A DNA stretch of 28,378 nucleotides from positions 1-28,378 of the forward strand of contig JAGCIP010000042.1 of NCBI GenBank assembly GCA_017648525.1, written 5' to 3'. The stretch is from Clostridia bacterium (GTDB lineage Bacteria; Bacillota; Clostridia; Christensenellales; Borkfalkiaceae). A program made the position numbers and the translations under genes. The notes beneath the pieces were generated by a model. It was not told where the DNA came from. It did not search any database and saw only the letters and a list, made by a program, of their open reading frames with translations. Positions 17,175 to 17,553 of the stretch are shown in pieces (the stretch's first letter is position 1; the number at the start of each line of letters is the position of its first letter).

Positions 17175-17311
17175 TTGTGATTATTATTTATTAGCGCACT
17201 TGGTCCTACATCATATTCTACACATAAATAGCACAAGGTAGGCAAAATACCTACCTTGTGCTATTGGTCGGAGTGACAAGATTTGAACTTGCGACCTCTT
17301 GGTCCCGAACC
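17175..17311. repeat. Copy 1 of a 137-bp direct repeat (tRNA-Pro 3' half, terminator and flank)
   Basis: Matches 17417-17553 at 135 of 137 positions; offset 242 bp. Confidence 0.97.
17228..17264 (-). terminator. Duplicated 15-bp hairpin behind the tRNA-like copy
   Basis: ATAGCACAAGGTAGG-(7 nt)-CCTACCTTGTGCTAT, identical to 17470-17506. Confidence 0.75.
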
Positions 17312-17371
17312 TCGTCAGAGAAAACTTCTCTCGTTGCGGTTTAATTAAAACTAAACCGCTTCCACGCTCCG
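17265..17371 (-). ncRNA. tRNA-Pro-like RNA with a native 3' half and a foreign two-hairpin 5' half
   Basis: CGGAGCG can pair 6/7 with CACTCCG-A-CCA. The T-arm and CGG loop are retained, the anticodon stem is broken, and two hairpins replace the D-arm. Expression is not demonstrated. Confidence 0.45.
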
Positions 17372-17416
17372 TTTCTCTTCCTCTTCACAAAAAATCTTTT
17401 GCAAGCAAAATCTTTT

Positions 17417-17553
17417 TTGTGATTATTATTTATTAGCGCACTTGGTCTTAAATCATATTCTACACATAAATAGCACAAGGTAGGCAAAATACCTACCTTG
17501 TGCTATTGGTCGGAGTGACAAGATTTGAACTTGCGACCTCTTGGTCCCGAACC
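17417..17553. repeat. Copy 2 of the 137-bp direct repeat
   Basis: Matches 17175-17311 with 2 mismatches, both in the AT-rich flank. Confidence 0.97.
17470..17506 (-). terminator. Hairpin terminator immediately after tRNA-Pro
   Basis: Perfect 15-bp stem abutting the CCA end; short interrupted U-tract (TTATG). Confidence 0.75.

Follow-up and report, generated by a model that had tools for sequence, protein, structure and literature searches.

The window analyzed here is a 28,378-nt stretch of DNA from a Clostridia bacterium of the family Borkfalkiaceae (contig JAGCIP010000042.1 of assembly GCA_017648525.1), and the feature under study is a duplication at its gene for tRNA-Pro(CGG). This feature is probably a short tandem array, of ~1.6 copies, of a 242-bp insertion unit that is non-coding and non-autonomous, sits in the anticodon arm of the tRNA gene and is mobilized in trans. 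Part of the unit, which we term the 'core', is a member of a structured, multi-copy family. Copies of the core are joined to the ends of genes, mostly those for tRNAs and tmRNA, and their insertion is polymorphic between sister species. The units that contain them are uniformly small, carry no recombinase in cis, and sometimes occur in tandem arrays. The tRNA gene stays functional because the unit brings with it a new 3' part and a new terminator, and the old 3' part is pushed downstream. In what follows, genomes, contigs of the window's own genome, and loci are designated ‘G’, ‘C’ and ‘L’. The window is contig C43 of genome G000, a metagenome-assembled genome (MAG) of 1.67 Mb and 37.7% G+C, in 244 contigs, and 86.5% complete.

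The array at tRNA-Pro

A repeat finder recovers two direct copies of a 137-nt sequence, at positions 17175–17311 and 17417–17553, spaced 242 nt apart and identical at 135 of 137 positions. The mismatches occur at 17206 (C/T) and 17209 (C/A). The coordinates and the count are those given in the initial annotation of this DNA, as is the start of the repeat within the anticodon arm. A near-identical repeat of this length is far above chance expectation, and there are no other repeats longer than 19 nt in the 3-kb region around the locus. Tandem Repeats Finder reports nothing at the locus because the array has fewer than two copies.

Each 137-nt copy comprises tRNA positions 30–76 (47 nt), a hairpin with a 16-bp stem, and a further ~52 nt. 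The initial annotation recognized the first two of these correctly as the 3' part of the tRNA and its terminator. The last, which it took for ~50 bp of flanking sequence, is instead an inverted remnant of the tRNA. We refer to these parts as R (the copied tRNA 3' part), T (the terminator hairpin) and M' (the inverted copy), and number them 1 and 2 by unit (Table 1). M'1 contains ACCAAGTGCGCTA, the reverse complement of tRNA positions 19–31, and its alignment score was equaled by 8 of 2000 shuffles. Because M'2 follows R2 and T2, we take the locus to be ~1.6 units of 242 bp in tandem: the 5' part of the tRNA is followed by one unit with all its parts (R, T, M' and core) and then by R, T and M' of a second, whose core may be represented by a few bases. 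The 137-bp duplication, which had appeared unusually long for a single attachment (att) block, is in this way accounted for by tandem units of several parts.

The 105 nt between the repeat copies are hairpin-forming, judged by inverted repeats and by DNA folding, and contain no open reading frame (ORF) of 60 or more amino acids, as the initial annotation had also described. The first 5–6 nt of the core hairpin (CACAA) fall within the 137-nt repeat. Junctions equivalent to that between the GACGA end of the core and R2 are present in three other genomes (G001, G023 and G020), where the tRNA-Pro gene is interrupted at positions 34/35; in the window it is interrupted at 29/30.

A structured core at many gene ends

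The core is not unique, as was first thought. Used as a query against its own genome, the 105-nt sequence finds two further loci, and a profile built from six copies (nhmmer) finds 8 copies in all: besides the window, they lie on C54, C155, C189, C215, C153 (twice) and C15. Many contig ends in this assembly overlap one another at 88–97% identity over 0.5–2 kb (e.g. C212/C74, C208/C225 and C47/C51), which may reflect a mixture of strains or redundancy among the contigs, and repeat copy numbers taken from the MAG therefore need caution. Of 120 genomes examined in the genus, 36 contain matches to a strict 26-nt pattern, with 1–5 copies per genome; the reversed pattern, used as a control, has 0 matches. 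The same pattern occurs in at least 116 stretches of GTDB genomes and in 48 metagenome stretches, and has no match in IMG/VR. One Coproplasma MAG carries at least 15 copies of the core. The records that contain the core come from gut and rumen and are mostly named Christensenellaceae, Candidatus Coproplasma, Borkfalkia or ‘Clostridia bacterium’. The DNA retrieved for the analysis contains 93 distinct full-length copies in all. Next to tmRNA, the unit is 0.79–0.94 identical between species whose tmRNA genes are only 0.72–0.83 identical, the lower values for the unit coming from those without the hairpin module. Read from sequence comparison, such conservation would fit either recent horizontal spread or strong constraint. 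In higher-G+C relatives from gut metagenomes (L212, L214, L217, L229, L232, L242 and L254), GACGACGA forms the end of the core, and a GC-rich block that recurs among the loci, GCGC…GAGGAAAACC…GGGAGGGC, comes after it; in some of these loci an inverted core lies nearby.

We describe the core on the strand that corresponds to the tRNA sense strand in the window. It begins with AGGGCTCCC and continues with an A/T hairpin, a purine run, and a helix, P1, that surrounds a hypervariable perfect hairpin; it terminates in GACG plus one base. Both arms of the A/T hairpin carry AAAGATTTT, and this results in an invariant tandem G-A/A-G mismatch. The consensus structure over 44 diverse copies comprises 18 pairs, and compensatory changes are seen at 9 of these. 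Paired cells make up 98.0%, against 87.3% in shuffles (the observed value was reached by 0 of 500), and double changes occur in 93 cells, against 27.6, counts that overstate independence since the copies are related. When the partner is slid by 1–3 columns, as a control, pairing falls to 37–67%. P1 displays AU/GC/CG exchanges at six pairs and a conserved, unpaired (bulged) T on its 3' strand, and its foot, RRRGC/GCYYY, is followed by GACG. Calculated with RNA parameters, folding of the sense strand is favored over that of its complement in 89 of the 93 copies, by a mean of 8 kcal/mol. This asymmetry would be expected if G-U/G-T and G-A pairs are tolerated on the sense strand only.

Several other identities for the core were considered and rejected. 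It has no match to a known RNA family in Rfam 15 at E ≤ 1, where only the tRNAs, tmRNA and signal recognition particle (SRP) RNA around it are found. A hammerhead-type ribozyme, brought to mind by CUGANGA beside the junction, was discarded on inspection, since neither a GAAA nor a helix III lies in register, and Rfam gives no match. A promoter module for small RNAs, suggested by a core ahead of tRNA-Gly and an apparent small RNA, was discarded because the ‘small RNA’ proved to be the 3' end of rpsI, because most copies of the core face the antisense strand of tRNAs or tmRNA, and because they have no consistent –35 and –10 sequences.

The GACG end of the core is always fused to a recognizable target. 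The initial annotation had suggested looking for the core beside the ends of other tRNAs, and it does recur there. At least 10 different targets share this one core family (Table 1), and all of them are hairpin-forming (anticodon arms, T arm/acceptor regions and the rpsI palindrome).

Table 1. Parts of the tRNA-Pro locus, with positions in the window, and sites to which the core is joined here and elsewhere
Feature	Position or source	Strand or orientation	Evidence
Candidate sigma-70-type promoter of tRNA-Pro (TTGCTT, 17 nt, TATAAT)	17611–17639	–	Suggested by sequence reading
Intact tRNA-Pro(CGG)	17507–17582	–	ARAGORN; Rfam tRNA model, 68.8 bits
R1, 3' 47 nt of intact tRNA-Pro (repeat copy)	17507–17553	–	
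T1, terminator hairpin (16-bp stem, 7-nt loop), directly 3' of intact tRNA	17469–17507	–	Inverted repeat I3; DNA fold
M'1, decayed inverted tRNA copy, anticodon stem-loop part deleted	17417–17468	–	Local alignment against tRNA reverse complement
Core of the repeat family	17312–17422	–	nhmmer family matches; inverted repeat I4; covariation; folding asymmetry between strands
Core A/T hairpin with tandem G-A mismatch	17385–17422	–	
Core purine run	17375–17386	–	
Core helix P1, enclosing variable hairpin at ~17337–17360	17317–17325 with 17372–17379	–	
Core terminus GACGA	17312–17316	–	
R2, displaced tRNA positions 30–76, fused directly to core GACGA end	17265–17311	–	
T2, second copy of terminator hairpin	17227–17265	–	Inverted repeat I2
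M'2, second inverted tRNA remnant, bearing both mismatches (17206, 17209)	17175–17226	–	
Possible stub of second core (tentative), ATCTTT as at start of core hairpin	17167–17174	–	Weak: 6/8 matches in A/T-rich sequence
Target: tmRNA, reverse complement of CCA end	Many species	Antisense	Rfam: standard tmRNA, SRP RNA nearby
Target: tRNA-Leu(CAG), CCA end	Own genome	Antisense	
Target: tRNA-Ala, CCA end		Antisense	
Target: tRNA-Trp, CCA end		Antisense	
Target: tRNA-Lys(UUU), CCA end, within tRNA operon		Antisense	
Target: tRNA-Pro, CCA end	G021		
Target: tRNA-Pro, anticodon loop	Window, G001, G023, G020 (4 species)	Sense	
Target: tRNA-Arg(ACG), anticodon loop	Three MAGs	Sense	
Target: tRNA-Leu(CAA), acceptor stem			
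Target: tRNA-Lys(CUU), T stem			
Target: tRNA-Gly(CCC), 5' end	Own genome		
Target: tRNA-Pro, 5' fragment			
Target: rpsI, last 26 nt (last codons)	Own genome and unrelated metagenome contig		

Well-preserved units follow a common plan. Read on the core-sense strand, they consist of R, which repeats the part of the target that lies right of the junction; T, a hairpin; M', an inverted copy of the target that runs from the tRNA 3' end back over the junction and 5–16 nt beyond; a filler; the core; and GACG, followed by the target's own R. The length of R differs with the target: 7 nt at tmRNA, 13 nt at tRNA-Leu(CAA), 17–18 nt at tRNA-Lys(CUU), 29 nt at rpsI, and 41–47 nt at anticodon loops. M' stands above shuffles in G001, G020, L050, L090 and L114 (0–5 of 1000 in each) and is weak in L072. 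In the three MAGs with a unit in tRNA-Arg, the junction-proximal 16 nt of M' are perfectly complementary to the tRNA of the host, including at an A/G difference between hosts; M', that is, tracks compensatory change of the host tRNA. The filler is A/T-rich, 5–15 nt in length, and specific to each locus. Because the stop of M' and the filler vary, while the GACG join does not, the right junction can be called precise and the left imprecise. The left side is joined to the antisense strand of the target and the right side to the sense strand, with a short overlap, and the 3' part of the target therefore exists in three copies: direct, inverted and direct.

Comparison with relatives that have the empty site, another check that the initial annotation had proposed, reveals the insertion, and the filled and empty loci of sister species bear out its claim that entry into the anticodon arm restores the gene and displaces a 3' fragment. 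At tRNA-Pro, G020 and G005 have near-identical flanks on both sides. The tRNA of G005 leads into its own terminator. That of G020 is followed by another terminator, and this by an inverted remnant of the tRNA, the core, a decayed 3' part of the tRNA and, last, the G005-type terminator and flank. The displaced half in G020 has thus retained the original terminator, and the intact gene has the new one. At tmRNA, comparison of G006 with G020 exposes an extra 162-nt block directly after CCA that ends in a second TCCACCA. Tandem units occur also at tmRNA in G088 and G093, with a period of 162 nt, and at tRNA-Leu(CAG) in the window's own genome, with a period of 150 nt. Units decay, too: all that remains in G054 (L022) is the last part of M', the filler and ~20 nt from the start of the core, and G123 (L171) retains only the P1 hairpin and a T run, after tmRNA. 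The displaced tRNA-Pro 3' part in G020 (L010, ~1330–1436) has an insertion of ~55 nt in its T arm, with small hairpins of its own, which shows that displaced fragments decay or get hit again.

Direct-repeat periods around cores, determined over 110 loci of which 30 have a detectable repeat, range from 122 to 466 bp and are mostly 160–330 bp; there is one of 907 bp, and one of 3.4 kb that is a repeat-module match. Among 194 loci we found no long or intermediate version of the element that bears an integrase.

Mobility and the search for a recombinase

We favor a mobile, non-autonomous unit because this fits best with the multiple copies, the folded strand, the precise end, the polymorphism, the restored gene, the arrays, the decay, the small size and the lack of genes. 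The initial annotation offered a minimal non-autonomous element that targets tRNA genes as one of two possibilities, and this is now the better supported of the two, with the corrections that the element belongs to a family, forms a tandem array, and has no dedicated integrase in evidence. The unit would be, or would recently have been, mobile, and would be moved in trans by a recombinase that recognizes the folded core strand and hairpin-forming targets. This enzyme would most likely be a tyrosine recombinase: the use of classical tRNA sublocations, the restored gene, and the link to integrases afforded by L125 (see below) all suggest tyrosine recombination in trans. Recognition of folded DNA, much as with integron attC sites or the attP hairpin of CTX phage, is suggested in turn by the variety of hairpin-forming targets, the bulged base, the asymmetry between strands and the inverted copy of the target. 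The imprecise side may be healed by back-copying through the terminator hairpin. Existing units may also spread to relatives by ordinary homologous recombination, via the tRNA sequence that brackets them (the full gene and R), and this would explain new terminators that resemble the native terminator of another species (G020 versus G006). The array in the window could have formed by a second integration, into the regenerated target, or by unequal crossing-over.

The initial annotation saw no integrase nearby, and this holds for the whole of the contig. The window's own genome has four matches to the tyrosine recombinase family PF00589, none of them on C43. Searching 194 core-bearing loci (1.1 Mb in total) with four recombinases (tblastn), we find a tyrosine recombinase in two, L124 and L125, neither within a unit that ends in the core; that in L124 is part of a separate island upstream of a tRNA-Lys cluster. 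No transposase or integrase recurs near cores. The ORFs within 1.2 kb cluster only into housekeeping families, and these are syntenic with tmRNA. G001, which is 96% complete in 10 contigs, carries the tRNA-Pro unit and has a single tyrosine recombinase, with an orthologue in G000. The best model for both is XerS, at 205 and 197 bits, below the cut-off of 267. An autonomous partner with the same att sites or ends was sought in the window's own genome, the 120 genomes of the genus, the GTDB matches, IMG/VR and the metagenome matches, and none was found. Genes for IS200-type TnpA transposases are present in some carriers and not in others; PF01797 has no match in G000 or G017, and in G001, G125 and G136 the IS200 copies have ends that bear no relation to the core. 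With TnpA missing from G000 and the element ends unrelated, an IS200/IS605 origin was ruled out.

The link between the core and integrase-type elements runs through L125, from a Solobacterium MAG, and is thin. A left-facing gene for a helix-turn-helix repressor is followed here by a good, right-facing sigma-70-like promoter and a leader with a core-like sequence, which starts as the core does, shares its purine run and likewise ends in GACGACGA, but has a shorter A/T hairpin. The leader is followed by an ORF of 62 aa that is Xis-like and by genes for an integrase that has an arm-binding domain, an AAA_25 protein and a Mob_Pre relaxase. L125 is an integrative mobilizable element. In L210 and L222, the leaders resemble that of L125 on both sides of the core. 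Since a pattern tailored to the L125-type form matches just 1 of 401 genomes sampled from the class, the association of the core with Xis/Int leaders rests on L125, L210 and perhaps L222. The core may have begun in the regulatory or arm region of integrative mobilizable elements, or may simply have inserted there too.

A bolder version of the same idea is that the core is a new kind of folded, single-strand recombination site, like integron attC sites in its logic and unrelated to them in sequence, through which a housekeeping XerS-like or other host recombinase moves a family of gene-free units in trans, into hairpin-forming sites of stable-RNA genes. We consider this unlikely. The precise GACG end would be joined to one strand, and the other side would be healed by snap-back copying; such copying would explain why the target is also present in inverted orientation, why the filler varies, and why a duplication restores the gene. 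Integron attC sites, and the attP(+) hairpin of CTX phage on which XerCD acts, are recombination sites of this folded, single-strand kind. The core may be akin to them in that it conserves structure over sequence, has a variable terminal hairpin and a conserved extrahelical base near the foot of a helix, and folds better on one strand. R and M' could, in addition, pair into a long hairpin that mimics a duplex target, and the sole recombinase in one carrier genome (G001) is Xer-like. Unlike attC, the core lacks the R-box consensus (GTTRRRY/RYYYAAC), having instead the RRRGC/GCYYY foot of P1 and then GACG, and the units do not lie at attI or dif sites. G000 and G001 have no IntI, their recombinases scoring 70 and 65 bits against that model's cut-off of 265. 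A fuzzy search of G000 for a difSL-like site, with an approximate consensus, found no match. The units differ also from elements that exploit Xer at dif (IMEX), in that they are inserted in or next to genes for tRNAs, tmRNA and rpsI. Gene-restoring integration at tRNA genes is already known, and the chance that the mechanism here is a new one is modest.

Several observations weigh against mobility in trans as we picture it. The enzyme itself was not found, and the carrier G001 has only the XerS-like recombinase and one IS200-type TnpA. No free, circular, phage-borne or plasmid-borne form of the core was found either. The orientation of the core varies with the type of target—antisense at CCA ends and sense at anticodon loops—which does not fit a simple strand-specific mechanism, and 10 or more targets cannot be explained by the specificity of one integrase. 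The two terminator copies do not differ from each other in the window or in G001, and a purely local duplication would fit these loci as well. The Coproplasma genome with its many copies has the core set among other repeat modules rather than tRNAs, and these modules lie to either side as direct, not inverted, copies. The conservation of the unit above that of tmRNA could stem from function instead of mobility, and the covariation of the core is inflated by kinship among copies, as noted above. Finally, the copy number of the array is taken from the assembly of a MAG and may not be exact.

Competing explanations, related elements and implications

The second possibility raised in the initial annotation was the scar of a collapsed island. 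In its general form, this explanation holds that integrase-bearing islands at tRNA and tmRNA genes have lost all but their att-adjacent arms, and that the core is the conserved P-arm or regulatory leader of one island family. A restored target gene with a displaced fragment is the classical signature of such islands (Islander, PMC4383910), and the anticodon loop, the T loop and the CCA end, all of them used here, are classical sublocations for integration within tRNA genes (Williams 2002, as cited in PMC9897764). The units resemble islands in that sequence borne by the element restores the split target and the displaced fragment lies at the far end, in the formation of tandem arrays, and in the use of anticodon loop, T loop/acceptor and CCA-end positions. 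Integrase islands are, moreover, present at tRNA-Arg(ACG), tRNA-Thr and tRNA-Lys in these genomes, the leader of L125 contains a core-like sequence, and decay has left clear products (L022 and L171). Random deletion, however, would not yield the same GACG/target junction and the same anatomy, 160–330 bp in size, in dozens of loci and species, and neither an intermediate nor a long form occurs among the 194 loci. Islands differ from these units, which are 120–470 bp in length, gene-free, and without an integrase in cis or nearby. One and the same core is found, furthermore, at tmRNA, at tRNA-Pro, Arg, Leu (two), Ala, Trp, Lys and Gly, and at rpsI, thus including a protein gene and the 5' ends of tRNAs; the block of identity varies from 7 to 47 nt; and the units carry an inverted copy of the target, which is not a known feature of island arms. 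With ~30 independent loci of the same anatomy, at periods of 122–907 bp, and no long integrase-bearing version, we judge collapse to be improbable.

Local rearrangement during replication or repair would dispense with mobility altogether. Template switching at the terminator hairpin and at a second hairpin, in the anticodon arm or the core, could give rise to an inverted triplication and capture a resident core of the REP or terminator kind. The ODIRA model (origin-dependent inverted-repeat amplification) accounts for inverted triplications in yeast by template switching at short palindromes (PMC4689423), and the geometry here is similar: R1, M' and R2 are direct, inverted and direct copies, the first junction is at a palindromic terminator, the other is imprecise and has filler, and the targets are all hairpin-forming. 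The shared terminators of the window and G001 agree with this. So does the fact that P1 and its T-rich run, when reversed, resemble a terminator, and that G123 uses exactly these after tmRNA. Tandem inversion duplications in Salmonella belong to the same class of geometry. Template switching imports no foreign sequence, however, and yet the same conserved core of 110 nt, with its precise end at the second junction, occurs in unrelated loci. In G020, G023, L050, L072 and C54 the new terminator is unlike the original one, so the block did not come from local sequence there, and at tmRNA the target repeat is only 7 nt. On balance, we find this explanation quite unlikely.

It is about as doubtful, in our view, that the core is primarily a functional RNA—a leader, a small RNA, or a 3' trailer or terminator module of stable-RNA genes—that was spread by duplication, with the displaced tRNA half as a part or by-product. 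The strong covariation, the G-U pairs and tandem G-A motif on one strand, and the conservation above tmRNA are all qualities of such an RNA. The core-like sequence of L125 lies in an mRNA leader behind a good promoter, the core in the window is preceded by a weak promoter-like match (TTAAGA, 18 nt, AATAAT), and the element in L044 lies within a tRNA operon. Against these stand the lack of an Rfam family and of any consistent promoter, since the filler ahead of the core varies. At CCA ends, the folded strand would run into the stable-RNA gene in antisense, with no terminator between them. The patchy distribution (36 of 120 genomes), the filled and empty sites, the tandem arrays and the decay are, likewise, unlike an essential RNA gene. 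That the second 137-nt copy is an artifact of mis-joined strain variants is most improbable: the MAG is fragmented (244 contigs, 86.5% complete), its contig ends overlap, and the copies differ at 2 positions only, but the same order was assembled independently in G001 (10 contigs), G023 and G020, and for tRNA-Arg in three other MAGs, and mis-joining would not make the junction between core and tRNA.

The units have counterparts of several kinds. Cis-mobilizable elements (CIMEs), derived from the integrative and conjugative elements (ICEs) of streptococci, are flanked by att sites, are kilobases long, and rely on an autonomous ICE partner with the same att sites. The units resemble CIMEs in their att-like repeats at the boundaries, in the lack of genes for recombination, and in the presumed action of an enzyme in trans; they differ in that no autonomous partner was found, the sole link being the core-like leader of L125. 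Small structured repeats and miniature inverted-repeat transposable elements (MITEs), among them REP/BIME, BOX, RUP and Correia elements and the palindrome-associated transposable elements (PATEs) of IS200/IS605, are another kind. The units are, like these, ~100 nt in scale, rich in hairpins, multi-copy, modular and non-coding. Unlike MITEs, the ends of the core, AGGGCTCCC... and ...GACGA, are not inverted repeats, and the target repeat is of no fixed length (7–47 nt). Unlike small structured repeats in general, the units strongly prefer the ends of stable-RNA genes, and their insertion restores the gene. PATEs insert 3' of a fixed target of 4–5 nt and do not duplicate it, whereas the units duplicate their target and have, as their left flanks, variable filler together with the target in inverted copy.

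Other insertions are present at tRNA genes in these genomes. On C155 of the window's own genome (L003, ~1300–1500), tRNA-Gly(CCC) and its terminator are followed by an insert of ~66 nt, after which the final 18 nt of the tRNA appear again, with another terminator. This insert belongs to a different mini-element family, situated at the T loop, and sequences related to it (…CCCGATAAACAGTCC…GGACTGTTTAGTCC…) occur between the core and tmRNA, or after tRNA-Pro, in L012, L015, L018, L020, L023 and L040. In L007, L010, L011, L015 and L022, the displaced first 19 nt of tRNA-Pro are followed by a conserved, structured block of ~95 nt (GGCGACGCG…GCGCCTTGGGCGCTACC) and then by the intact gene. The block has the look of a third family of mini-elements. 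Members of such a family replace the gene's 5' part and must, for this reason, bring a promoter. A further family of inserts (…CGACGGATTAGCGRAAG…CACGTTATTTCG…) is found in the T loop of tRNAs in L058 and L102, where it is tandemly duplicated with the core between the copies. Larger elements are present, too. On C38 (~4058–4330), a displaced 5' half of tRNA-Thr(CGT), from the anticodon loop, lies ~150 nt upstream of the intact gene, and a 504-aa tyrosine recombinase is encoded on the 3' side of the gene. On C94 (L163, 96–560), a 49-nt 5' fragment of tRNA-Arg(ACG) is followed, 33 nt on, by a complete but different tRNA-Arg(ACG), then by GTTCTAACC repeats, which are arm-site-like, and by the gene for a 437-aa integrase; an island seems to have entered here and to have carried a complete tRNA as the replacement.

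In the window, tRNA-Pro is flanked by genes for malic enzyme (17748–18944, minus strand) and a sodium:solute symporter (15481–17043, minus strand), with genes for aspartokinase, TrkA and a DUF1015 protein farther away. The candidate promoter of tRNA-Pro (Table 1) lies ~28 nt 5' of the mature end, and the relatives L005, L008 and L009 have the same layout. A perfect hairpin of 15–16 bp at 17687–17724, with T-rich runs on both sides, separates this promoter from the malic-enzyme gene and is probably a bidirectional terminator. A gene for tRNA-Glu(CUC) occupies 26439–26513 on the plus strand.

If they are mobile, these units would be among the smallest gene-restoring integrative elements described: ~160–250 bp, free of genes, and built around a conserved, folded core. 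Their presence at the ends of many different tRNA and tmRNA genes, and even of a ribosomal-protein gene, would point to targeting by the structure of DNA or RNA rather than by one att sequence, and possibly to an unrecognized activity of a host recombinase. The units create pseudogenes of tRNA halves, extra terminators and near-identical repeats, and these confuse annotation: the calling of tRNAs, the finding of islands by means of displaced tRNA fragments, and the assembly of MAGs in the Christensenellales, a common group in the gut. With at least three more families of mini-elements at the same genes, the stable-RNA loci of these small genomes gather tiny insertions layer upon layer.

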